A DNA stretch of 64,000 nucleotides from an uncultured Azospirillum sp. (lineage in GTDB: Bacteria > Pseudomonadota > Alphaproteobacteria > RF32 > CAG-239), in NCBI GenBank assembly GCA_947301965.1, contig CAMYUM010000001.1, forward strand, positions 190,731-254,730, given 5' to 3'. This document shows, in pieces, positions 4,597 to 55,016 of the stretch. The notes under the pieces are model-generated. The model did no database searches and had not been told where the DNA came from. It saw nothing but the letters and a program-made list of their open reading frames with translations. A program made the translations under genes and the position numbers. Positions within the stretch are counted from its first letter, which is position 1. The number at the start of each line of letters is the position of its first letter.

Positions 4597-5397
4597 TTAT
4601 TTCTCCATAAAATAGGCTTTTATGAGTTTTGTGAGGTTTGTGGCTCCTTTGGAAGCACAGGCAAGAGTTTGTTCATGACTGAGTTTTTGTTTTTGCATGC
4701 CGGCTCCAAAATTGGTAATAACCGACATAGCCACGGTTTTTATACCGCAATATGATGCGGAAATAACCTCGGGAACCGTCGACATACCGACAGCGTCGGC
4801 GCCTAAAATGCGAAAAGCTTTGATTTCAGCGGGAGTTTCAAAGTTGGGGCCGGTAACAAAGATATATGTACCTTGATGGGTTTTTATTTTTAATTTGGTC
4901 GCAACCGATTTAAAACATTTGCGCATTTCGGTATCATAAGCAGAGGTCATATCAACAAAACGGGGACCAATCTTTTCATCATTTTCTCCAATGAGAGGAT
5001 TAAGTCCTGAAAAATTGATATGATCGGTAATAAACATAATTTCTCCGGGGAGAATTTTCGGGTTTAATGAACCGGCGGCATTGGTTATGATCAGCTGTTT
5101 TATGCCGACTTGTTTGAGCGAACTGATTACGTCTTTAATGATTGAGGGGTGATAACCTTCGTAAAGGTGAAAACGTCCCTGCATACACAAAACTTCGTGT
5201 TTGCCCAAGGTGCCGATAACCATCTGCCCTTTGTGCCCGGCTACGGTACTTGTTGGGAATCCTTGAATGTCGGAATATTTTATGACAAGAGGTTTTTTTA
5301 TGCTGTCGGCGACAGCTCCCAGGCCGGAGCCTAAAATGATGGCACAGTGAGGGTGGCGATTGAGCAAAAGTTTTTTGAATTGCCTGATATTAATCAT
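4597..5397 (-). CDS. punA: purine nucleoside phosphorylase (trimeric PunA type)
   Basis: 266 aa; AIILGSGLG and MSTVPEVI motifs of PNP family; 1-nt gap to deoC. Confidence 0.75.
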   Translation of the reverse strand: MINIRQFKKLLLNRHPHCAIILGSGLGAVADSIKKPLVIKYSDIQGFPTSTVAGHKGQMVIGTLGKHEVLCMQGRFHLYEGYHPSIIKDVISSLKQVGIKQLIITNAAGSLNPKILPGEIMFITDHINFSGLNPLIGENDEKIGPRFVDMTSAYDTEMRKCFKSVATKLKIKTHQGTYIFVTGPNFETPAEIKAFRILGADAVGMSTVPEVISASYCGIKTVAMSVITNFGAGMQKQKLSHEQTLACASKGATNLTKLIKAYFMEK

Positions 5398-18212: not shown

Positions 18213-18327
18213 CTTTTCAATTCGCTACTTATATCAGCGGTACTCTAGCATACAGAGCAGAAAATACCAGTTAAAAATACAGGATATCCTATACTTTTAT
18301 TTTTTTAAAATATTATGAAAAAAATAC

Positions 18328-18356
18328 TTGCAAATAAAAAAAATGTTAGTTATAAG
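18328..18356 (+). promoter_or_regulatory. sigma-70-like promoter for tRNA-Asp
   Basis: TTGCAA (18328-18333), a 17-nt A-rich spacer, then TATAAG (18351-18356), ~15 nt upstream of the tRNA 5' end. Confidence 0.35.
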
Positions 18357-18371
18357 GAATAACAAATTTAC

Positions 18372-18448
18372 TGGGGGTGTAGCTCAGTTGGTTAGAGCGC
18401 CTGCCTGTCACGCAGGAGGTCGCGAGTTCGAGCCTCGTCACTCCCGCC
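18372..18448 (+). tRNA. tRNA-Asp (anticodon GTC)
   Basis: Cloverleaf read by eye: acceptor GGGGGTG/CACTCCC, D-arm GCTCAGTTGGTTAGAGC, anticodon loop CTGTCAC, T-arm GGTCGCGAGTTCGAGCCTCG, encoded CCA. Confidence 0.85.
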
Positions 18449-18452
18449 ATTA

Positions 18453-24920: not shown

Positions 24921-25310
24921 TTATTGCTTCTTTTTAGCTTTGGTTTCTATAACGTTGTAATTGTAACAAGCCCAAATCAAAGCAATTAACCAACCGACGA
25001 ATGTCCATCCAGCAAGAAGGTTTAACAAAAAAACAGGTAAGATTTGATTATGATTCCTGTACAAAGCTATAAAATAAGGGATAAAATATATAAATGTTAA
25101 AACAACCTCAGCAATTATAAATACTGAAATAAAAACAACTTTAGAAGTTACTTCAATTTCAACGCCGTGAAGGTCAACCCAAAAAGGAGGTTCAATTCCA
25201 TAAAAAATATTAATCGGAACTAATGATTCTAGGATTATCAATATACACGAGATAATAAATGTCCAGTCTTTAGTATTTAAACTTTCTTCTTTAATCTCTT
25301 TCTTTTTCAT
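24921..25310 (-). CDS. small membrane protein of the superinfection-immunity (Imm_superinfect-like) family
   Basis: 129 aa with 3 predicted TM helices. The C-terminal YFIPYFIALYRNHNQI…LNLLAGWTFVGWLIALIWA matches the signature of that family (…GWTxxGWxxALIWA). Confidence 0.45.
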   Translation of the reverse strand: MKKKEIKEESLNTKDWTFIISCILIILESLVPINIFYGIEPPFWVDLHGVEIEVTSKVVFISVFIIAEVVLTFIYFIPYFIALYRNHNQILPVFLLNLLAGWTFVGWLIALIWACYNYNVIETKAKKKQ

Positions 25311-42778: not shown

Positions 42779-43789
42779 GTGATTCAAAAGAATTGGCAAG
42801 AACTTATTAAACCGACTAATTTAGAAGTTGTTCCCAGCGATGGCGGAAACAAAGCTAAAATAGTGGTAGAACCATTAGAGAGAGGCTTTGGTCTCACTCT
42901 TGGTAACGCATTGAGACGGGTTTTGTTGTCTTCTTTGCAAGGCGGAGCTGTTACCGCCATTAAAATTGACGGCGTTTTGCATGAATTTTCAGTTATTCCG
43001 GGTGTCCGCGAAGATGTTACGGATATTGTACTGAACATTAAATGCTTGGCTGTTGCTGTTCATAGTGAAGGCACAAAATCTATGACTTTGAAAGCCGAAG
43101 GTCCTTGTGTGGTTACCGCAGCAATGATTGAAACCGGTCACGATGTTGAAATTATGAATCCGGATTTGGTTATTTGTAACCTTGATGCCGGTGCTAAAAT
43201 CAATATGGAATTGACTGTCGGAACCGGTAAGGGCTATGTTCCGGCCAGCCAAAATAAACCGGCCGATGCTCCTATCGGATTGATTCCGGTTGATGCGATT
43301 TATTCTCCGATTAAACGCGTTTCATACCGTGTCGACAATACTCGTGTCGGACAAGTTACCGACTATGATAAGCTGACTTTGGTTGTTGAAACCAACGGTG
43401 TGGTTACTCCGGAAGATGCAGTAGCATTTGCTGCCCGTATCTTGCAAGATCAGTTGAAACCGTTTATCAATTTTGATGAGCCGGAAAACGAAGTTGAAGC
43501 AGAAAAAGAAGAATTGCCGTTCAACAAGAATTTGTTGAAGAAGGTTGAAGAACTCGAACTTTCTGTTCGTTCGGCTAACTGCCTGAAGAATGATAATATC
43601 GTTTATATCGGTGATTTGGTTCAAAAGACTGAGGCAGAAATGCTCCGTACACCGAACTTTGGTCGTAAATCTTTGAACGAAATCAAAGAGGTGCTGGCTA
43701 AAATGGGTATTCATCTCGGTATGGAAACACCAGGTTGGCCGCCGGAGAATATTGAGGAGTTGATTAAGAGGGTTGACGACCATTTCTAG
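42779..43789 (+). CDS. rpoA: DNA-directed RNA polymerase subunit alpha
   Basis: 336 aa; NTD and CTD canonical. Confidence 0.92.
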
Positions 43790-44032
43790 AAAACTCGTAT
43801 AACGGTCAACTAATACAAAAACTTCATCAGCCGGTTCGGTCATGTACGTCTATGTACACTCCTCGCCGGCTGATTTGTTTTTTATTATTTGCCTCGTTCT
43901 ACGAGTTTTTTCGATATTGAGGAAAAAGAGAGAAATTTTTCTCTCTTTTTATTTTGACTTTATCTAAACCATTCTTTGCATTTTGTGAGGGCAAAAGGTG
44001 TTTTTTATTATTTGCCTCGTTCTCCGAGTTTT
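43790..44032. repeat. structured intergenic repeat element, copy 1 (starts at rpoA stop, ends at dtd stop)
   Basis: Its first ~100 nt are ~95% identical to 54704-54805. It carries a 9-bp perfect hairpin (ATCAGCCGG at 43826-43834 / CCGGCTGAT at 43866-43874) with a T-run. It also has two copies of TTATTATTTGCCTCGTTCT[AC]CGAGTTTT and an AAAAAGAGAGAAA/TTTCTCTCTTTTT palindrome (43923-43950). Confidence 0.8.
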
Positions 44033-44470
44033 CTAGCGTTCGAGAACGAATGTGACCGGACCGTCGTTAATCAGGCTAACTTGCATATCGGCCTGAAAAA
44101 TGCCGTTTTCGGTCGGGACGCCATGGTTTTTGAGTTGAGAGGAAAAGTATTCGTATAAGGGTTTGGCCTCTTCCGGGCGGGCGGCATTGTCAAATCCGGG
44201 GCGGTTGCCTTGAGAGCAGTCTCCGGCAAGTGTAAATTGAGAGATTACGAGGGCAGAGCCTTTGATATCTTTGACAGAAAGGTTCATTTTGCCTTGTTGA
44301 TCTTCAAATATACGCAGGTCAGAGGCTTTTCGTGCCAGATATTCAGCCTGTTTCGGGGCGTCTCCTTTTGCAATGCCGATAAAAATAAGCAAGCCTTGTC
44401 CAATTTGTCCGACTACTTGGTCGTTGACGGCGACAGAGGCTTTTTTGACACGTTGCAGCAATAGTTTCAT
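44033..44470 (-). CDS. dtd: D-aminoacyl-tRNA deacylase
   Basis: 145 aa; SQFTLAGD…GNRPGF Dtd motifs; sits on the opposite strand between rpoA and rplQ. Confidence 0.8.
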
Positions 44471-44674
44471 GTGTTTTTCTCCTGTGTTTCAGAGTGGAGG
44501 ATATTGGTTAAAATATTATTATAAAAATGCTTGCAAATATGAAAAATATTATATATATTGCGCTTGCGTTGAAAGTGATTCGACGTAAAACCGATATGTA
44601 TGAAGGTAGTATCGGTACGGAATTATCCGCTTTGCCAGTCAAAGCACAACATTATAAAATGAAAGGAAAATGCC

Positions 44675-45301
44675 ATGAGACATGGTGATGCACATAAAAA
44701 ATTTAATATGCCGACCAGCCAGAGAAGAGCTTTGTTTTCTAATCTTACCTGCGCTTTGTTGACACACGAACAAATTAAAGTTACTTTGCCGCGCGCTAAA
44801 GAGTTGAGAACATTTGCCGATAACATGATTACTTTTGGTAAAAAAGGCGATTTGAACAGCCGTCGTTTGGCATTGGCCTTTTTGCGTGATGAAGAAGTTG
44901 TTGCAAAGTTGTTTTCGACTTTGGCAGAGCGTTACAAAAACCGCAATGGCGGTTATACCCGCGTTTTGAAAGCCGGCATTCGTTACGGCGATGCTGCTCC
45001 GATGGCGATTGTTGAGTTGGTTGACAGAGATGTTAAGGCCAAGGGTGCTAAAGATTTGGCTCGCGTAGCTGCTGAAAAGGCTGCTGCTGAAGCTGAGGAA
45101 AAAGCAGCCGAAGCAGAGGCTAAAAAAGCCGAGAAAAAGGCTGAAAAGAAAACCGAAAAGAAAGCAGAAAAGTCGGTAGAGAAAAAAGCTGAAAAGAAGG
45201 CAGTAGAAAAGAAAACCGAAAAGAAAGCCGAGAAGCCTGCAGAAAAGAAAGCTAAAGCTCCGGTAAAAGCTAAAAAAACTACCAAAACAGCTGAAAAATA
45301 A
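44675..45301 (+). CDS. rplQ: 50S ribosomal protein L17 with ~90-aa Lys/Ala/Glu-rich C-terminal extension
   Basis: N-terminal 118 aa canonical L17; then (A/T)EKK-type imperfect repeats encoded by tandem gctgaaaagaaa-like units (nt ~45030-45301). Confidence 0.88.
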
Positions 45302-45413: not shown

Positions 45414-46694
45414 TTATCGGTCGTAGAAAACAAGTCCAATGTTGAACTGTGCCTTACACTCGAGTTTGTCAAAATCGGCCATTACGTAGCGAATTAAACG
45501 GTAACCGACGTATTTGCCATTTTCGTTCTCTCCTGATTGATTTTGTATGAGCTCCTGTTCATCCGAGAAACGGAAGTTTTGGAATGTTGGAACAGGAAAG
45601 TCGCATTGCAGATAACCATCATAATAAAATGAAGCATCGCTATAGACTTCCATATCAAAATCAAAGAAGTTGTAAACGATATTGAGCATACGGTAATATC
45701 TTATTGTTTGTACGTACGGGACAATATACATATCGATAGCATTATAGACATCTCCCAGTTCGTATGAAACAATTTCGACAGTTTCAGGTTGCTGACCATG
45801 AAATATTATGCTCTTCATTTGGTCTTCAATGTAGGCATAAACCGGAACTTCAACAACTTCCGTCTTGACCTGACCATCCGACCACCACCGCTTGATTTGC
45901 AATCGAGAATGAACTTGGTCTCCTGAAGTGTAATAGGATGATGACAAGAGTTCACTCTTTTTAACGTAAGCTTCAAAGGCATCACCAAATGGAGTCTGTA
46001 AAATGACTTTAGCTTTGAGGGTGTAAGTTTCGCCGTTCAAATCAACTGAGATAGAATGGTCAATTTGTCTGCGAGCAAAAACCGTCAGGCTTTCATCGTT
46101 GATAGATTCAAGCTTGGAGATTTCCATACCTTTGTCTTTGAGATTTTGGATTTTGTGGTAGGGCATGAGTTCTCGGCTGATGCCATCGTCATAGACGGCA
46201 ACCTCATACTCAAGCTCGTATTCAAAAGAAAAATCCTCAAAGTTAACGGTATAAACCATTACGGAGTCAGTGATGGTGACGTAACCATCTTGACGAGTAC
46301 CTTTAACACGATACGAGATGTCGGTAGTGTAATCCCCAATATCAAAGTACGTGTTGTTGATTGTAATTGTAGTGTCGGTGTTGTGAAACACGTCTTTCAA
46401 GAGTACAGTAACGACGTCTCCGTCATCACCGGAAGCTCGAGTCTTGGGCGCAGTCTTGGTTTGGACCTTAATCCAAGATTCGTAGGAGAGCTCGGTACCG
46501 GAAATTGAGGCTCCGGTCTCGGTAGTGCCTGAAAGTTGTTGAGCAGTAACCTTGTTAGCAAGGCCGGTGTCAATAACTTTGCTTTCGATGACTTCCTGGT
46601 TTGCAGGGTCAAGGGGGTCCTCGCATGATGTAAACATCATGGCGGCCAAAAACACAGTTGCTGTGATAATCGGCCAAAACTTGATAGTTTTCAT
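45414..46694 (-). CDS. hypothetical secreted protein / lipoprotein (426 aa)
   Basis: Signal peptide MKTIKFWPIITATVFLAAMMFTSCEDP… with a Cys followed by an acidic stretch. The mature protein is Y/D/E-rich and probably beta-rich. It lies downstream of the two Cys-rich genes on the same strand. No family recognised. Confidence 0.5.
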   Translation of the reverse strand: MKTIKFWPIITATVFLAAMMFTSCEDPLDPANQEVIESKVIDTGLANKVTAQQLSGTTETGASISGTELSYESWIKVQTKTAPKTRASGDDGDVVTVLLKDVFHNTDTTITINNTYFDIGDYTTDISYRVKGTRQDGYVTITDSVMVYTVNFEDFSFEYELEYEVAVYDDGISRELMPYHKIQNLKDKGMEISKLESINDESLTVFARRQIDHSISVDLNGETYTLKAKVILQTPFGDAFEAYVKKSELLSSSYYTSGDQVHSRLQIKRWWSDGQVKTEVVEVPVYAYIEDQMKSIIFHGQQPETVEIVSYELGDVYNAIDMYIVPYVQTIRYYRMLNIVYNFFDFDMEVYSDASFYYDGYLQCDFPVPTFQNFRFSDEQELIQNQSGENENGKYVGYRLIRYVMADFDKLECKAQFNIGLVFYDR

Positions 46695-46961: not shown

Positions 46962-49487
46962 TTATTCACAAGTCATAAGCTGAACAGTAGAACGGTTGTC
47001 ATGGTTACAACTTTGATAAGTCATCTCGCAGAGATTGTTTACATATGTTTGTCGATCTCCGCAATTAGTTCCGCTGGTGCAGACCTGTTTTTTGGAGGTA
47101 TAATCAACAGATCTCAAGTAACCTTTATTTCCGGAAACAGTATATGTGCATGCCATGTAGGCTTGCGAATCGTATATATGAGCATCTCTGTTACCATTGC
47201 ATCCACATCTGAGCAATCTGACGTGGTTATGACGCTGGTAGTCAACTTTGTCTACCATTGAACATTTTTTGAGAATTTTGTTACGACCTTCCAAAATGCG
47301 GGCACTATTGTCGGTAACCTGTATTTTACTACCGGTAGTTAAACCAATTGTGTATTGGGCCGAATTGTTGGGGTTGTAAAGATACCAGTCAAGAGCGTTA
47401 GACAAGTTTAAGGTTAAACCTCTTGCACGGTAAGCGCCTTGAGCCCAACCAACCTGAAGATTGGTGTAAACACTGGCCGGAGAAGAGCTCGAAGGTCCGT
47501 AAAATCTGAAGGTTTTGTTGACAAGAGATGCTGATGGTAAGTGATCTTTATCAGAACAACTTTTTCCGGTCTCAGCATCTTTTATTGTCCAATTGTAGCG
47601 GTTTTGATAGGTATCACGCTCGTTACCGATCTGGAATTTGTTAACCGCAAAGACCTGACCCTCACCAAGAGTGATTGAGTTGGTAACATCTTTCGAGCTA
47701 ATATCGGTCAAAGTTCCTCGACCAAAGTACGAAGATTCGCTGTTGAACGAGTATCCGGAGGATAGAAATCGGTTTCTGTTAACTAGTTCTCCTGAAATGT
47801 TAACTTCACCGGTTCCTGTTAACGTGAGGGTTCCATAATTCCAAAGTGTTCCGCTGACAGTCAAGATTCCGTTATCAACAGTTAAAGCACGGTAGGAAGA
47901 AGTTGATTGAGGGAATCTGAGTTCGATTCCCTTGAAATTAAGGGGATCGGTATTTGCTTGCGAATCATTGCTCGGAAATGTCGATGCCGTGTATGTAATC
48001 ACCGGGGTGCCACTGCAGTTATTTTTGGCGTTGTCGGCAATAGGATCATCGCCGAAAGTTTCAAGATACTGGGCGGCTGAAATATAGGTTTTAGCCTTAG
48101 AGCCTACGAGCCCGGCGTAACCAGTGGTAGTATTCGTCGTAGTTATATCTCTGGTGTGAGTGCATACGGCTAGCATTTCTCTGCCGCCACCGCCGTTGCC
48201 TCGAGCACAACCATATCGTGTGAGGTTACTGTACGGTTGATCAAGATATTGACATGGAATAGGCCCTATGTGTGAGAACGTCCATTCGCTGCCAAGATCA
48301 TGATGTTGCCATACGCCACAGTTTGTGCAAACACAACTGTCATCATCCTGGTAGAATGGATTTTCGCGAGGAGTAACGTTATCCTTGCACTCACGCCTTA
48401 TGCAAACGGTTGTTGTGTGAGAGCTGCTTGAAGAGCTATTACTACCAGCTGTACTTATGGTTACACTGTCAGCTACAATTGCTTTGGTTGCAGTACTGGT
48501 ATTACCATTACCATCTACAACTGTGGTAGCGGTCAATACACCATACTGGGTATCATTAGTGGCTTTTAATAACTCTTTGATTGCACCGGAACATGTGTCT
48601 TTGGTGCACTTGCCGTTAACAACGGTGTATCCCGATTTGCAAGAAGTGGCTCTGTAGCGTTCACTATTGCCACCGGTACATCCCTTTTCAGTACGGCATT
48701 TGACGTAATTTACCACTTCACTGGGGAGCTCTGTATAAGGGTAAGTTGTGGCATCGCACTGACAGCAGTCGGAAACGTATTGCAGTCCATCTTCGTCAGT
48801 ACAAGTTGTGGCACTTCCGGGAACACCATAACTACAGGTTGTTTTAAGGATAGTTTCGTTACATTCACATTTTGTAAAGTGTTCATCGCCATCAGGAGCG
48901 TCCTGGCATCTGATACCACCAGCTTTCATACCTTTGGCCTGGCAGATCTCTACAGTACGGGGATAGGTGACAGGATTACACAAACAACCTTTGTAAAGCG
49001 AGGTTGTAACTAAGGCATCGTTTTTGTATTGTCTAAAATAGCAGATGCCGTTTGCGTAATCACCACGAGCGTTTTCATACGAAGTACCGTTGCTGAGGCG
49101 AGTACAGTTGTCCCCACTTTCATAATAATCAAACTCATCGGGGCATCCACATTTTAGCAAATTACCGCATCGATCAAGTATGATGTTGGTGCTGTCGCAT
49201 TGGGAGGTATATTCAGCGTCGCAACATAATACCCAGTTGTTGTCATAAGGACAGTAGTCACCGATATGTTTTGGGGTGACACATTCAGTTCTTTTGACGG
49301 TATAGCCCGCTTCTTTGCATTTTTGTTCAAGTTCGTTAGCATCAGGGATAATATCATCAGGATTAACGCTTCCATCTCCACACTCGCCGGAGGGGAGAAA
49401 ACAAACGCTGGCGTTGGTACTTAAAGACCAAAAACAGCAACAGCCGACAAGCAATGCGGCCATTAGATATTTATACGATTTTTTCAT
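46962..49487 (-). CDS. large cysteine-rich secreted protein, paralog B (841 aa)
   Basis: Signal peptide MKKSYKYLMAALLVGCCCFWSLSTNA. About 34 Cys lie in the first ~330 aa with conserved spacing (CPYDNNWVLCC, CGNLLKCGC, YPRTVEIC, TKCEC, CSYGVP, TYPYTELPSEV, NGKC). An S/T/N linker follows, then a second Cys cluster. A ~400-aa Cys-free region carries NISGEL/VSGTL repeats. A small C-terminal Cys cluster ends in MTCE. It is about 50% identical to the product of 49655..52183. Confidence 0.7.
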   Translation of the reverse strand: MKKSYKYLMAALLVGCCCFWSLSTNASVCFLPSGECGDGSVNPDDIIPDANELEQKCKEAGYTVKRTECVTPKHIGDYCPYDNNWVLCCDAEYTSQCDSTNIILDRCGNLLKCGCPDEFDYYESGDNCTRLSNGTSYENARGDYANGICYFRQYKNDALVTTSLYKGCLCNPVTYPRTVEICQAKGMKAGGIRCQDAPDGDEHFTKCECNETILKTTCSYGVPGSATTCTDEDGLQYVSDCCQCDATTYPYTELPSEVVNYVKCRTEKGCTGGNSERYRATSCKSGYTVVNGKCTKDTCSGAIKELLKATNDTQYGVLTATTVVDGNGNTSTATKAIVADSVTISTAGSNSSSSSSHTTTVCIRRECKDNVTPRENPFYQDDDSCVCTNCGVWQHHDLGSEWTFSHIGPIPCQYLDQPYSNLTRYGCARGNGGGGREMLAVCTHTRDITTTNTTTGYAGLVGSKAKTYISAAQYLETFGDDPIADNAKNNCSGTPVITYTASTFPSNDSQANTDPLNFKGIELRFPQSTSSYRALTVDNGILTVSGTLWNYGTLTLTGTGEVNISGELVNRNRFLSSGYSFNSESSYFGRGTLTDISSKDVTNSITLGEGQVFAVNKFQIGNERDTYQNRYNWTIKDAETGKSCSDKDHLPSASLVNKTFRFYGPSSSSPASVYTNLQVGWAQGAYRARGLTLNLSNALDWYLYNPNNSAQYTIGLTTGSKIQVTDNSARILEGRNKILKKCSMVDKVDYQRHNHVRLLRCGCNGNRDAHIYDSQAYMACTYTVSGNKGYLRSVDYTSKKQVCTSGTNCGDRQTYVNNLCEMTYQSCNHDNRSTVQLMTCE

Positions 49488-49529
49488 GATGAACCTCCCT
49501 TATTTAACACTATGCGCGCATTATATTTC

Positions 49530-49558
49530 ATTATACGTTAAAAAACAGTAAAAGTCAA
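49530..49558 (-). promoter_or_regulatory. consensus sigma-70 promoter of Cys-rich gene B
   Basis: Read on the minus strand: TTGACT, a 17-nt spacer (tttactgttttttaacg), then TATAAT. A ~45-nt leader leads to the AAGGGAGG RBS and the ATG at 49487. Confidence 0.55.
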
Positions 49559-49589
49559 TATAAAGCGGGTTAGAATCGATTATTTGGAT

Positions 49590-49654: not shown

Positions 49655-52183
49655 TTATTCGTATTCGGAGTCTTCACAAGTGAGCATAACTCCGGTTTTG
49701 GGGCCAAAGTAGTCTTCGTCATGGCCTCTTGAATAGCTAAAGCTGCAGCCACTACCAAAAGTTGTCTTTATGTTGACACAATCACCGTCAGGTTTGACGG
49801 TTACTGTAGAGCTAGAACTTTCGCGAGAAACATAGCCACTGCTACCTATTGAACAAGCATAGTAAGATGATAACCCAAGAGGAGAGTTATCTCCGCTTGA
49901 CGTTATACAACTATCGGCTTGACAATCTAAGAAACGATGTCGGTCTCGTCCGAAATAGACGGTATCTGTCATTTTGCACCAACCATAGGATGTGTTGTAT
50001 CCGGCCCAGATGCGGGCGTAGTTACCATAACCATAGTCGGTTGAATATATCTTACTGCCGGTGGTCAGATTAATGTAATAATTTCTGGAATTACCATACA
50101 AGTTCCAGTCAAGATTGCCGGACATACGAAGGGTTAAGAAACTGGTGCGTAAGGTTTTGCCCGGTATGTAACCGAGATAAAGGTTGGTGTAGATATTGGC
50201 AGTGTTTGATGATGAAGGACCTTCAAAATCTACAGTTGTATAATAGGGGTAGGCAAGAGGCAATGATTGGCCGACAATATCGGTGGTAATGCTGGGATGA
50301 GAACTTCTATACTGATCAGTAGCTGAAGAAATGGCCAAAGTGGAAACCCTGAACTCTTGTCTGGGGCCAAAGCTAAAGCTTGCCGGTGTTCTGTTTCTGT
50401 ATTTTTCCGGGATTAAAATATTAATAGTTCCGGAAGAATATGATGATGATTCGTTATATGAATACCCTGAGGAATCAAAAGTATCCATGATTTGCAGTGT
50501 TCCGGAAATATTAACATTGCCATTGCTTGAAGGTGACGACAGATTTATCGGACCATAGGCATTGAGAGTTCCGGTTATGTTCAATCCGCCTTCGTTCAAG
50601 ACAAGTTTGCGATAAGATTTGGTTGTGCTTGAAAACTTTAGATTGACATTAGAAAAACTGATTGTTTGGTTGCTGGCAGATTCAGAGTCATTAGCCGGGA
50701 AATTCGATGCCGTGTAAGTTATGGTCGGCGTGTTTTTGCAAACAGTTCGGGCGGTAGCTGCGGCAGGATCGTTATTTACTACCGAATTCAAAAATTGAGT
50801 TGCCGAAATATATTGTGTGGCTTTAGAATTAGCCAGCCCCTTATAAGTAGTCGAAGTTGAAGAATTGCTTACTGTTACGACATCCGTACACTTGGCCGTC
50901 ATGCTTCGACCATAGAAATCACGAGGGCAAACGGTATCATATGCACTGTTGGGATAAATACGGTTATAATCACACGGGAGATAATAGTTGCACATTTCAA
51001 GTGCATCTGCGTTCATGTGATTTTCGAGACAACAGTTTGTGCATGTGCAGTTTTCAGTATCTTCATAATATGGAATTGTCTGGGGCGAAACACAAGTGCG
51101 TTGGCGACACATTCGAGTTGAGCCTGTATTGGTTGATGAACTATTGGTGCTGGCAGTAGAAATAGTTACATCATCAGCAACGATGGCTTTAGTGGCATTA
51201 CTGGTGTTGCCATCAGCATCAACAACGCCACTAGATGTCAATAAACCGTACGCTGTGTTTGGATTGTATTTTAAGTAGGTCTTAAGTGCATTTAAACAAG
51301 ATACCTGTTCGCACTTGCCGTTTCTGACTTCATATCCTGGTTTGCAAGTTTCTGCTTTGTAGCGATTGCTGCTTCCGCCGATGCAGCCTTGAGCCGCGCG
51401 ACAAGCGGTATAAGTGTCAACTTCCGGCGGTATTTCGGTATAAGGATATGTTGACGAACTACAAGAGCAACATGCAGAAGTGTATTGCACGCCTTCTTCT
51501 GATGTACATATCTGAGCGGTCGGGGGAACACCGTAGGTACACGATGACTTAAGAATAGTGCTGGTGCATAAACACTTTGTATAATGTTTTTTTCCGTTAC
51601 TGTCTTGACACATGGTTCCACCACCAACCATATTGCGGGCAGCACAAATACTATCCGTACGCGGGTAAACTGTGTCATCGCAAATACACCCGGTATATAG
51701 AGGTACGGTATTTAGCTGGTTGTTAACATAGGTTGGGAGGTAACAAATGCCGTTATCATAATCACCCTGGCTATTTTGGTATTCCGTACCGGTGCTGTAT
51801 CGTGCGCAGCCGGTATTATTTTCATTATAGTCGTACTCTTCAGCGCAGCCACATTTTACGAGTGTGCCGCATATGTCGACAACAATATTAGTGCTTTCAC
51901 ATTGCAAAGTGTAATCAGGAGTACAACACATTACCCAGTTGTTGTCATAAGGACAAAAAGCACCGATTTTTTGGGGAGAAACACAAGCGGACTTGGCAAC
52001 AATATAGCCGTCGGCAGCACATTTACTGGCAAGATCATCAACGTCAACATCTGCGCCGGCAACTTCGGAGTCTGCACAATTGCCTCGGGGGAGAAAACAT
52101 ACATTAGCATTGGCTGATATAGCCCAGAAACAGCCGCATGCAATCAGCGTTAAGGCTGTCAGATATTTGAATGATTTTGTCAT
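49655..52183 (-). CDS. large cysteine-rich secreted protein, paralog A (~842 aa from MTKSF start)
   Basis: The track gives 49655..52225, but the upstream ATG (MKYSAHVV…) lies inside the -10 box of the duplicated promoter. The start at ~52183 (MTKSFKYLTALTLIACGCFWAISANA) has a GGGGAGA RBS and aligns with the paralog B N-terminus. Domain layout is the same as B (CPYDNNWVMCC, CGTLVKCGC, YPRTDSIC, TKCLC, CTYGVP, TYPYTEIPPEV, NGKC). Confidence 0.7.
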   Translation of the reverse strand: MTKSFKYLTALTLIACGCFWAISANANVCFLPRGNCADSEVAGADVDVDDLASKCAADGYIVAKSACVSPQKIGAFCPYDNNWVMCCTPDYTLQCESTNIVVDICGTLVKCGCAEEYDYNENNTGCARYSTGTEYQNSQGDYDNGICYLPTYVNNQLNTVPLYTGCICDDTVYPRTDSICAARNMVGGGTMCQDSNGKKHYTKCLCTSTILKSSCTYGVPPTAQICTSEEGVQYTSACCSCSSSTYPYTEIPPEVDTYTACRAAQGCIGGSSNRYKAETCKPGYEVRNGKCEQVSCLNALKTYLKYNPNTAYGLLTSSGVVDADGNTSNATKAIVADDVTISTASTNSSSTNTGSTRMCRQRTCVSPQTIPYYEDTENCTCTNCCLENHMNADALEMCNYYLPCDYNRIYPNSAYDTVCPRDFYGRSMTAKCTDVVTVSNSSTSTTYKGLANSKATQYISATQFLNSVVNNDPAAATARTVCKNTPTITYTASNFPANDSESASNQTISFSNVNLKFSSTTKSYRKLVLNEGGLNITGTLNAYGPINLSSPSSNGNVNISGTLQIMDTFDSSGYSYNESSSYSSGTINILIPEKYRNRTPASFSFGPRQEFRVSTLAISSATDQYRSSHPSITTDIVGQSLPLAYPYYTTVDFEGPSSSNTANIYTNLYLGYIPGKTLRTSFLTLRMSGNLDWNLYGNSRNYYINLTTGSKIYSTDYGYGNYARIWAGYNTSYGWCKMTDTVYFGRDRHRFLDCQADSCITSSGDNSPLGLSSYYACSIGSSGYVSRESSSSTVTVKPDGDCVNIKTTFGSGCSFSYSRGHDEDYFGPKTGVMLTCEDSEYE

Positions 52184-52222
52184 GGCCAATCTCCCCAATA
52201 ATACCACGTGCGCACTATACTT

Positions 52223-52251
52223 CATTATACGTTAAAAAACAGTAAAAGTCA
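52223..52251 (-). promoter_or_regulatory. consensus sigma-70 promoter of Cys-rich gene A (duplicate of the gene B promoter)
   Basis: The same TTGACT-tttactgttttttaacg-TATAAT sequence as at 49530-49558. The duplicated block extends ~80 nt. Coordinates are +/-1 nt. Confidence 0.55.
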
Positions 52252-52392
52252 ATAATAAGCGGTATAGAATCGGGAAAAAGGGAGACGATTACGAAAAATT
52301 TCCGATATTGCAAAAATCGCTTGAAAATGAATCAATTCGTGCTAAATTAGGGGCGAAATTTTTTAATGCCCGTGCGGGGCGTTCCGCACTAA

Positions 52393-53494: not shown

Positions 53495-54703
53495 ATGAAT
53501 TATAAAACTATTGATGATTTGGGCAATTTGCAGGGCAAAGTCGCTATGCTGCGTGCTGATTTGAATGTGCCGATGAGTGAGGATTTTAAGGTTACAAATA
53601 CCGCCCGTATTGATCGTACGGTTCCGACAATCAAAGAATTGATGAGCAAAGGGGCAAAAGTAGTTGTGATTTCGCACTTCGGCCGTCCGGAAGGCAAAGG
53701 CGACATGAAAAACTCCCTACAACATATTGTCGGTGATTTGCAGAGGGCCTTAGGCAAAAAAGTTGTGTTTGTTGACGATTGTATCGGTGAAAAAGTCAGC
53801 GCCGCTGTTGCCAAAATGAGCAATGACGAAGTTTTGTTGCTTGAAAATCTACGTTTTTATGACGAGGAAAAGAAAGGCAATGAAGATTTTGCCAGAGAGT
53901 TGGTTAAACCGGCAGATGTTTATGTTTCAGACGCTTTTTCAACTGCTCACCGCGCCCATGCATCAATGGTTGCTGCCGTAAAAGAACGCCCTTCGGCAAT
54001 GGGTCGTTTGATGGAAGAGGAAGTTAAGGCTCTTGAGGGAGCTTTATCAAACCCAACTCGCCCGTTGATTGCGATTGTTGGTGGTTCAAAGGTTTCTACC
54101 AAATTGGATTTGCTTAATAATTTGGTTAAGAAAGTTGATAAGTTGGTTATTTCCGGTGGTATGGCTCATACTTTTATGAAAGCCAGCGGAATTGACGCCG
54201 TCAATGAGACAAATTCTTTGGTGCAAATGGATATGATTGATACCGCAAAAGAAATTATGTCCGTTGCAAAAGCTAATAACTGCGAAATTGTTCTTCCGGA
54301 TGATGTGGTTGTTGCTAAAGAGTTTGCGGTTAATGCCGAACATAAAACCGTCGGAGTGAATGAAATTCCGACAGATGGCGGTCATTTGCTTGATGTCGGC
54401 GAAAAAACCATTGCTTCAATCAACGCTAAACTTGATGAGTGCAAAACTCTGGTTTGGAACGGACCGCTCGGCGTGTTTGAGATGAAACCGTTCGACAATG
54501 CCACCAACAAAGTTGCTCAACATGCGGCAGAATTGACATCCGCCGGAAAACTTATGTCAGTAGCCGGTGGCGGTGATACGGTCTCGGCTTTGGAAAATGC
54601 CGGCGTGGCCAATAAATTTTCCTACATTTCCACTGCAGGCGGAGCTTTTCTGGAGTGGATGGAGGGGAAGGAGTTGCCCGGAGTTGCCGTATTAAAAAAA
54701 TAA
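53495..54703 (+). CDS. pgk: phosphoglycerate kinase
   Basis: 402 aa; canonical PGK. Confidence 0.9.
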   Translation: MNYKTIDDLGNLQGKVAMLRADLNVPMSEDFKVTNTARIDRTVPTIKELMSKGAKVVVISHFGRPEGKGDMKNSLQHIVGDLQRALGKKVVFVDDCIGEKVSAAVAKMSNDEVLLLENLRFYDEEKKGNEDFARELVKPADVYVSDAFSTAHRAHASMVAAVKERPSAMGRLMEEEVKALEGALSNPTRPLIAIVGGSKVSTKLDLLNNLVKKVDKLVISGGMAHTFMKASGIDAVNETNSLVQMDMIDTAKEIMSVAKANNCEIVLPDDVVVAKEFAVNAEHKTVGVNEIPTDGGHLLDVGEKTIASINAKLDECKTLVWNGPLGVFEMKPFDNATNKVAQHAAELTSAGKLMSVAGGGDTVSALENAGVANKFSYISTAGGAFLEWMEGKELPGVAVLKK

Positions 54704-54968
54704 AACTCGTATAACGGTCAACTAATACAGAAACTTCATCAGCCGGTTCGGTCATGTACGTCTATGTACACTCCTCGCCGGCTGATTTGTTTCTTATTAT
54801 TTGACTCGTTCTCCGAGTTTTTTAAGCATTAAACAAGAGGAAAAATTCATGTACTACTGGTTACACTAAAATTTTTCCTCTTTTTATTTTGACTTTATCT
54901 AAACGGTTCTTCGCGTCTTAAGCTAAAGTGTTTCTTATTATTTGCCTCGTTCTTCGAGTTTTCTCGGC
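54704..54968. repeat. structured intergenic repeat element, copy 2 (starts at pgk stop)
   Basis: AACTCGTATAACGGTCAACTAATACAgAAACTTCATCAGCCGG…CCGGCTGATTTG is shared with copy 1. It also has two TTATTATTTG[AC]CTCGTTCT[CT]CGAGTTTT modules. The middle hairpin has a different sequence (AAGAGGAAAAATT…AATTTTTCCTCTT) but the same position and shape. Confidence 0.8.
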
Positions 54969-54981
54969 ACATATTTATAAA

Positions 54982-55016
54982 AAAAGCACCGTGTTTGGAC
55001 GGTGCTTTTTTTGAAC
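54982..55016. terminator. bidirectional terminator between repeat copy 2 and eno
   Basis: aaaaaaagcaccgtgtttggacggtgctttttttg. Confidence 0.6.

Follow-up and report, generated by a model that had tools for sequence, protein, structure and literature searches.

A structured intergenic repeat of rod-like hairpins at the stop codons of rpoA and pgk in an uncultured alphaproteobacterium

What kind of element fills the space between the convergent genes rpoA and dtd, and why does a similar one follow pgk? The question is raised by a 64,000-nt stretch of contig CAMYUM010000001.1 from an uncultured rumen alphaproteobacterium (the whole stretch is referred to here as the window), for which an earlier note had described two copies of a structured, non-coding repeat of approximately 250 bp. 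Both copies and every motif quoted for them were found where that note had placed them. The 250-nt element is an array, composed of one full hairpin unit (A) and one left-truncated unit (B). We propose, with slightly better than even confidence, that the units are a lineage-specific, low-copy rod-hairpin repeat resembling BOX, enterobacterial repetitive intergenic consensus (ERIC) sequences, and miniature inverted-repeat transposable elements (MITEs), and that they serve as a (bidirectional) terminator and as a hairpin of the 3' untranslated region (3'UTR).

The rpoA-side array (copy 1, 43790-44032) begins with the first base 3' of the rpoA stop codon TAG, and its right end adjoins the dtd stop codon, which reads CTA on the plus strand. 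The entire convergent rpoA-dtd spacer is thus array. Copy 2 begins inside the pgk stop codon TAA (54701-54703), with AAAACTCG at 54702-54709, and ends at approximately 54964-54968; the claim that the repeat starts at the base after a stop codon therefore holds for rpoA, and at pgk the start lies at or within the codon. Both arrays are located between convergent gene pairs (rpoA> <dtd and pgk> <eno), and their units stand head-to-tail from the stop codons of rpoA and pgk onward. In a pairwise alignment of 324 columns, including approximately 20-30 nt of flank per side, the mean column identity of the two copies was 85%, and their first 122 nt were 97% identical. The 26-mer AACTCGTATAACGGTCAACTAATACA had exactly two matches in the window, the 28-nt module TTATTATTTGNCTCGTTCTNCGAGTTTT had four (43882, 44005, 54794, and 54935), and the 23-mer TTTTATTTTGACTTTATCTAAAC (R_B) had two, with zero expected in shuffles for each. 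The whole arrays also folded better than shuffles (z = -8.2 for copy 1 and -8.3 for copy 2), and z was about -8 on either strand.

Unit A is a single long imperfect palindrome, AAAACTCG...CGAGTTTT, and folds as one rod (-49.7 kcal/mol, z = -9.0). The rod consists of a left arm, a variable and perfectly paired inner stem, the apical YA-UGUAC-nnCUnn-GUACA-C, and a right arm ending in a U-run. The anatomy given in the earlier note has to be revised accordingly: the element is a single rod hairpin of approximately 120 nt, to which a left-truncated unit is added. The 9-bp GC stem ATCAGCCGG/CCGGCTGAT with its 31-nt loop was correctly identified and is the inner stem of the rod. The direct repeat ATGTAC-GTCT-ATGTAC in its loop is better described as an inverted repeat, TGTAC-N6-GTACA, which makes an apical stem of 5 bp (TGTAC/GTACA) with a 6-nt loop. 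The supposed CTCG/CGAG mini-hairpin reaches -3.2 kcal/mol alone and is the base of the 120-nt rod, within the right arm; this arm is the TTATTATTTG..CTCGTTCTNCGAGTTTT module, named R_A. Unit B consists of a linker, a hairpin with a distinct, perfectly paired stem, the right arm R_B, a variable spacer, and a further R_A. R_B looks like an R_A carrying an insertion of approximately 9 nt. The second hairpins of the two copies are present as quoted, and the short one of copy 1 is a derivative without its tip; the full version is found in relatives.

Four full unit types were distinguished. Type A (~122-124 nt, inner stem ATCAGCCGG/CCGGCTGAT) is present at both loci. Two more were seen at rpoA, namely, A' (109 nt, with AAACCTCTTTTGT/ACAAAAGAGGTTT as its inner stem) and B'-rpoA (129 nt, with CAAAATGCA/TGCATTTTG as its outer stem), and one more at pgk, B'-pgk (127 nt, with AAAACGCG/CGCGTTTT as its outer stem). 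All of them adopt the same rod (-41 to -50 kcal/mol, z = -9 to -10.6) and fold equally well under DNA parameters as under RNA parameters. Their lengths span 109-129 nt, with a GC content of 27-41%.

The proposal that the hairpins are kept by compensatory change was borne out by an alignment of 12 distinct full units. The RNAalifold structure has 36 pairs, and 18 of them show changes on both sides, in an alignment that represents only approximately four independent unit lineages with modest event counts. Under the predicted structure, 95.6% of the cells were paired, versus 37-52% when the partners were slid, and the slid controls gave one to seven compensated pairs. None of 500 shuffles reached the observed values. 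The outer stem occurs in three compensated forms (CUCG/CGAG, CGCG/CGCG, and UGCA/UGCA), and the apical helix is without any variation. The unit is a structured hairpin under constraint, since its pairs are kept by compensatory change beyond the controls. Because template switching in quasi-palindromes can yield compensated changes without selection (PMC8794818), covariation alone is no proof of RNA function; the arms stay symmetrical through selection on the hairpin, template-switch correction, or the two together.

The inner hairpin of unit A has a predicted stability of -24.8 kcal/mol and is followed by UUUGUUUUUU; on the reverse strand, the values are -30.7 kcal/mol and a U-run. The B hairpins lie directly 5' of UUUUAUUUU, and a terminator scan flagged 43923-43950 and 43893-43905. 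The folding models thus predict at these gene 3' ends what defines an intrinsic terminator, namely, a stable hairpin with an immediate U-run. The other gene ends of the window have ordinary A-tract/hairpin/T-tract terminators of 30-40 nt, and the rpoA-dtd spacer has the array only. In the outgroup locus L032 (related loci are cited by L numbers), an ordinary terminator stands where the rpoA array is found elsewhere. The role in termination and stabilization is inferred from the position, the U-tracts, and the analogy with REP325, reported as a dual terminator/stabilizer (bioRxiv 10.64898/2026.03.23.713779), and with SPRITE, found near convergent gene ends (PMC3184786). In the mechanism that we propose, the units would belong to the transcript of the upstream gene, as its 3' end, and would act as intrinsic, largely bidirectional terminators and as protective 3'-end hairpins. 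At the DNA level, the comparison of strains and species shows that units are gained and lost via recombination between the right-arm modules, which form direct repeats of approximately 35 nt. It also shows that the first unit is cleanly replaced by alternative types (A, A', and B') and that units are copied between the rpoA and pgk loci and shared among species.

Several observations weigh against this proposal. An ordinary terminator is retained at pgk, so that termination at this locus does not require the array. Neither an invariant 16-nt tip nor near-100% conserved unpaired positions would be expected of a plain terminator, and the tipless B hairpin at 43923-43950 nevertheless persists. 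The strand signal is ambiguous, with G.U on the plus strand in 19 cells versus A.C (equivalent to G.U on the minus strand) in nine. In addition, only two loci were seen, which is atypical of repeats of the MITE type or of the repetitive extragenic palindrome (REP) type.

Copy searches took in the window, approximately 243 kb of related loci, and pattern scans of the whole metagenome collection; approximately 40 further loci were gathered via Dtd and Pgk homologues and their contigs. The covariance model R1, run with filters off, found no third copy in the window, and with default filters it found no copies beyond the two loci in the 243 kb of related sequence (25 loci). Its weak matches were rejected as extra copies and are ordinary terminators. 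When the four unit types were searched by blastn-short in the window and in every locus, nothing came up beyond the two arrays. In the collection scans, matches occurred only in metagenome-assembled genomes and contigs of rumen Alphaproteobacteria, all at rpoA or pgk 3' ends, bar two chance matches; the pattern was aimed at R_A, so that copies of A' alone would escape, and the collection is a subset, with the JGI contigs L012 and L035 absent from the matches although they contain the pattern. The two exceptions, in a cyanobacterium and a Bacteroidota genome, were 22-nt chance matches unrecognized by R1. The earlier note had itself named a genome-wide total of two copies as a refuting result, and by this measure a high-copy MITE is not supported, since the matches of all these scans and model searches were confined to the rpoA and pgk 3' ends.

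Outside the lineage, loci L032-34 lack the element and have ordinary terminators after rpoA and pgk. A second outgroup, the P0146 species, has an ordinary terminator and no array after pgk. The more distant relative L047 carries B' at pgk. In L032, an R_B-like TTTTTATTTTGCTTTACTTTTGGTTCTT directly follows the ordinary rpoA terminator. Many short metagenomic contigs end within the arrays (L010, L011, L014, L015, L020, and L024); short-read assemblies break right after rpoA or dtd because of the repeat, which for annotation explains the assembly breaks directly after rpoA in these genomes.

The loci were grouped by their divergence at rpoA 4-fold sites into G1 (the window and L012), G2 (L031, L025, and L026), G3 (L017, L018, L021, and L004), and G4 (L002); loci of different groups differ by 0.25-0.38, and loci of one group by no more than 0.05. 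Unit number varies within a group. The window has A and B, whereas L012, L013, and L016 have a single unit A that occupies the whole 120-nt rpoA-dtd spacer, and the junction of this difference falls within the repeated R_A module. Likewise, L006 has two units and L008 has one. The first-unit alleles A, A', and B' are all present within G2 and all within G3. L025 (A') and L026 (B') show no difference in 392 nt of rpoA or from the next hairpin on; the first-unit block alone sets them apart. Across groups, every allele keeps an identity of 97-100%, and unit A matches at 122 of 122 positions between the window and L031 and at 121 of 122 between the window and L037. In the same cross-group comparisons, divergence at 4-fold sites is 0.27 in rpoA, 0.44 in pgk, and 0.49 in dtd, and identity in other spacers is 90-93%. 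The arrays are therefore identity islands. These reflect either very strong constraint or recent exchange among co-resident species. Exchange seems the more economical account, because very different alleles substitute for one another. An assembly chimera is unlikely to lie behind the allele sharing, as the alleles have only approximately 11 nt in common at the left junction and several of them turn up repeatedly, in four independent samples.

The pgk array sits between the stop codon and the ordinary terminator. Because this terminator is retained 3' of the array and the array is absent in two outgroup species, the pgk array is an acquisition into the 3'UTR. In L005, L006, L008, and L047, the left arm encodes the end of pgk, its last codon and stop codon, as a result of a 7-nt deletion; the protein then ends in VLKRA* instead of VLKK*, which accounts for the differing Pgk C-termini in annotations. 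The 419-aa forms of Pgk were considered as C-terminal extensions and rejected, being miscalls of the N-terminal start site. At the level of sequence comparison, unit gain, loss, and replacement, the acquisition at pgk, and the positional replacement of a terminator are apparent. It seems that one unit took the place of the ordinary terminator of rpoA, that a copy of it entered the pgk 3'UTR, and that strains now differ in the number and type of units. The arrays thus offer a small, clean example of the origin and turnover of a structured intergenic repeat in an uncultured gut/rumen lineage.

The element is a new member of the known class of small structured intergenic repeats, marked by an invariant tip and a cassette-like, trans-species sharing of alleles. 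BOX of Streptococcus pneumoniae (boxA-(boxB)n-boxC), SPRITE, and RUP each number roughly a hundred per genome. They are alike in being modular and non-coding, with a variable number of internal modules and a predicted stable RNA structure, but they belong to a different phylum, have no sequence relation to the present units, and are far from the two loci seen here in copy number. ERIC sequences, also called IRU, are imperfect palindromes of ~127 bp that form a long hairpin in transcribed intergenic regions, and their presence varies between species. The present units share the long-hairpin palindrome of similar size and the species-variable presence; they differ in their very low copy number, show no sequence similarity to ERIC, and have tandem arrays, an invariant apical loop, and stop-codon abutment, which are not features of ERIC. 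The Correia elements (NEMIS) of Neisseria are 100-155 bp long, with inverted ends and TA flanks, and are co-transcribed, their long hairpin being cut by RNase III. They are set apart by hundreds of copies, 26-bp terminal repeats, and an IHF site, and the TA duplication here is seen at one locus only and may be merely the stop codons. REP units are 20-40 nt long, with a GTAG-type head and an association with the RAYT transposase. REPs and their mosaics (bacterial interspersed mosaic elements, BIMEs) are extragenic palindromes that cluster, are enriched between convergent genes, and act as terminators and mRNA stabilizers (PMC3184786; bioRxiv 10.64898/2026.03.23.713779); REPs are GC-rich and abundant, with hundreds of copies (PMC3184786). 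The clustering of palindromes between convergent genes is alike, but the present units are 109-129 nt long, AT-rich (27-41% GC), and low-copy. The Rickettsia palindromic elements (RPEs) are alphaproteobacterial palindromic repeats of 100-150 nt. They are numerous and typically lie in-frame inside coding genes, whereas the present units lie outside coding sequences except in the pgk relatives with the 7-nt deletion. Ordinary bidirectional terminators share the A-tract, hairpin, and T-tract between convergent genes; compensatory evolution of their stems is documented (PMC5381666), and template switching can create and maintain terminator hairpins (PMC8794818). The present units are three- to fourfold longer than the window's other terminators, occur at two loci and in tandem with an invariant tip, and, unlike ordinary terminators, are far more conserved than the flanking synonymous sites. 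Of the identities offered by the earlier note, a stacked terminator array and a MITE/REP-like element each fit part of the evidence, and a stand-alone small RNA gene, for which neither a conserved promoter nor an Rfam family was found, is without support.

A functional RNA, with termination as a secondary matter, is a rather unlikely alternative, although the likeliest of them. The rod would offer its invariant apical UGUAC-nnCUnn-GUACA to a protein or partner RNA for binding; the units would then be 3'UTR regulatory modules or would give rise to small RNAs through processing, e.g. by RNase III. None of the 12 distinct full units departs from the common tip, while 18 other pairs covary, and regular-expression and one-mismatch searches found the tip motif only in the arrays, always in the orientation of rpoA or pgk. 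Conservation of entire units, with their unpaired positions, is 97-100% between species with a synonymous divergence of 25-35%, a constraint like that on rRNA or tRNA, but recent exchange explains this conservation equally well. The very different types A, A', and B' interchange at the same site, units are dispensable in some strains, and one unit without a tip is still conserved across species. No match at gathering score was found in Rfam 15; the sub-threshold matches by E-value were generic hairpins only (sraA, 28.7 versus 56 bits; MIR840, 24.5 versus 150 bits). No conserved promoter was found either: candidate internal promoters, a TTGNCT-N17-(C/G)AGAAT-like one in R_A plus linker and a TTGACT in R_B, are weak, lack a conserved -10 element, and were inconsistently called. 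An RNA function would, if true, mean a new 3'UTR regulatory motif common to a gene of the transcription machinery (in a ribosomal-protein operon) and a glycolysis gene.

It is improbable, although not far-fetched, that the unit is an active non-autonomous MITE, whose terminal inverted repeats GAAAACTCG/CGAGTTTTC would be mobilized in trans by a transposase encoded elsewhere and which would insert at TA and duplicate it. The exact flanking by stop codons (TAG/TAA and the dtd CTA) would then follow from TA insertion and duplication. The rpoA-dtd array is indeed flanked by TA on both sides, TTTC[TA]GAAAACTCG...CGAGTTTTC[TA]GCG, but these are the two stop codons themselves, and no matching duplication is demonstrable at pgk, where the right flank is TC or TT. 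Inverted ends around a short non-coding core are present, (G)AAAACTCG / CGAGTTTT(C), the whole unit being an imperfect palindrome, and both size and rod structure fit the definitions of a MITE (PMC3184786). The presence or absence among species, the placement of the pgk copy upstream of the old terminator, and the identity islands across species are also as expected. Copies dispersed in both orientations were not found: in the window, the ~243 kb of related loci, and the collection scans, the units occur at rpoA and pgk 3' ends only, in the single orientation of the upstream gene. An empty rpoA-dtd site was not found, and the window contains neither a transposase nor an integrase. Allele replacement removes the resident left arm rather than splitting it, and the change in copy number is accounted for by recombination between R modules. 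With regard to a phage or plasmid origin, blastn gave no match and three pattern scans of viral contigs were empty.

The bounded allele swaps suggest a bolder idea, which we hold to be quite improbable: the units may be site-specific, horizontally exchanged hairpin cassettes, whole units being copied or swapped at the stop codons of highly expressed genes by some enzyme that recognizes the TGTAC-N6-GTACA tip in folded single-stranded DNA or RNA. This would explain the three first-unit alleles in each of two species groups, the 97-100% allele identity across species with ~30% synonymous divergence, and the sharp boundaries of the replaced block in otherwise identical backgrounds. Such cassettes, if real, would represent a new type of targeted non-coding mobile element. 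Very improbable is a DNA recombination site, a hairpin in single-stranded DNA or a cruciform recognized by a site-specific recombinase (as for integron attC, Xer, or the IS200/IS605 type) that would make the rpoA and pgk 3' ends hotspots of cassette exchange, since, although the units are imperfect palindromes of 109-129 nt beginning at stop codons and folding as well as DNA as they do as RNA, with sharply bounded allele blocks and, in some strains, variable genes just past the arrays, their left arm has (G/C)NATAAC versus RYYYAAC of attC and their right arm GTTCTNC, with pyrimidines where GTTRRRY needs purines, no gene cassettes or open reading frames (ORFs) lie between units, no integrase or recombinase is in the window, and the P0146 species has variable genes after pgk without an array.

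Coding explanations were also considered. The ORFs through the element are not conserved, as the earlier note had observed. The 41-codon ORF of the plus strand is destroyed in copy 2 and in the same-species strains that lack unit B. Read as the mini-ORF M-Y-x-x-V-H, the tip varies at codon positions 1-2 and has a conserved C at position 3. A Shine-Dalgarno-like GAGG, present in one unit type only, was rejected as coding support. The resemblance of the dtd 3' end to the module was judged incidental, being short and within the coding sequence for the conserved C-terminus of Dtd. The features of both arrays are listed in Table 1.

Table 1. Coordinates of the array features and adjoining signals in the window
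Feature	Position	Strand	Remarks
rpoA stop codon TAG	43787..43789	+	Adjoins array, whose other end has CGAGUUUU-CUA, a possible pairing partner of UAG-AAAACUCG
Unit A, copy 1, rod hairpin of ~122 nt	43790..43911	+	Supported by fold, model R1 (140.6 bits), and covariation
Unit A, copy 1, left arm	43790-43825	+	
Unit A, copy 1, inner GC stem	43826-43834 / 43866-43874	+	
Unit A, copy 1, invariant apical stem-loop	43843-43858	+	TGTAC-N6-GTACA
Unit A, copy 1, right arm	43875-43911	+	R_A module with T-run
Unit B, copy 1, left-truncated unit	43912..44032	+	Missing as a block in same-species strains L012/L013/L016
Unit B, copy 1, linker	43912-43922	+	
Unit B, copy 1, short AT-rich hairpin	43923-43950	+	Tip lost
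Unit B, copy 1, R_B module	43947-43969	+	TTTTATTTTGACTTTATCTAAAC
Unit B, copy 1, variable spacer	43970-43998	+	
Unit B, copy 1, second R_A module	43999-44032	+	
dtd stop codon	44033..44035	-	CTA on the plus strand
Unit A, copy 2	54702..54823	+	Overlaps last two bases of pgk stop TAA; R1 141.7 bits; 97% identical to copy 1
Unit A, copy 2, apical stem-loop	54755-54770	+	
Unit B, copy 2	54824..54968	+	R1 31 bits, partial model
Unit B, copy 2, linker	54824-54834	+	
Unit B, copy 2, hairpin	54835-54882	+	AAGAGGAAAAATT/AATTTTTCCTCTT; tip 54850-54865, one G>T change
Unit B, copy 2, R_B	54882-54904	+	
Unit B, copy 2, spacer	54905-54928	+	
Unit B, copy 2, R_A module	54929-54964	+	
Ordinary bidirectional intrinsic terminator, array-eno interval	54979..55012	.	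A-tract, GC hairpin, T-tract; -19.4 kcal/mol

Several observations concern the surroundings of the arrays in related loci. Just past the 3' ends of rpoA and pgk, gene content varies from strain to strain, which makes this DNA a hotspot of variation (L017 10465-12060, L038 4456-5691, and L039-L046 4260-5700). Among the genes that vary are ORFs of 75 aa and 142 aa without Pfam matches, a peptidase S66, and a glycosyltransferase with a carrier protein; the stretch that begins with the 75-aa ORF may be methyltransferase-like, as read by eye. Such variation at 3' ends is also present in a species without arrays (P0146, after pgk). In L030 (10525-10614), the contig end fuses a fragment of an FtsX-like ORF to R_B beside dtd, which may be an assembly chimera or a rearrangement at the array. 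This fusion prompted the idea that R_B derives from the 3' end of an FtsX/MacB gene, which was dropped, as R_B has no similarity to the real FtsX gene beside dtd in L047. In the outgroup L032, a non-coding interval of ~300 nt between rpoA and an HTH gene gave a sub-threshold match to sRNA-Xcc1 (4907-4985, minus strand; 36 bits versus a gathering score of 53).

Within the window, dtd lies on the minus strand between rpoA and rplQ (44033-45301), which breaks the usual rpoA-rplQ order; rplQ is separated from the alpha operon because dtd sits between the two. The product of rplQ is a 208-aa L17, with a Lys/Ala/Glu-rich C-terminal tail from 12-nt periodic repeats (45107-45268). An AT-rich promoter-like block, TTAAAATATTAT...CTTGCAAAT...TATA, occurs at 18305-18354 and 44508-44557 with 84% identity, upstream of tRNA-Asp (18373-18449) and of rplQ, and may be a shared strong-promoter/UP-element module. 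Tandem paralogues of 841 and 856 aa without a Pfam domain are encoded at 46962-49487 and 49655-52225, and blocks of 74 nt that are 86% identical (49505-49578 and 52199-52272) precede the tandem paralogues. A third Pfam-less gene, of 426 aa, lies at 45414-46694; the set of three is kept in relatives and is absent from the outgroups L032 and L047. Finally, a 129-aa ORF with the superinfection-immunity domain PF14373 lies amid housekeeping genes at 24921-25310 on the minus strand.

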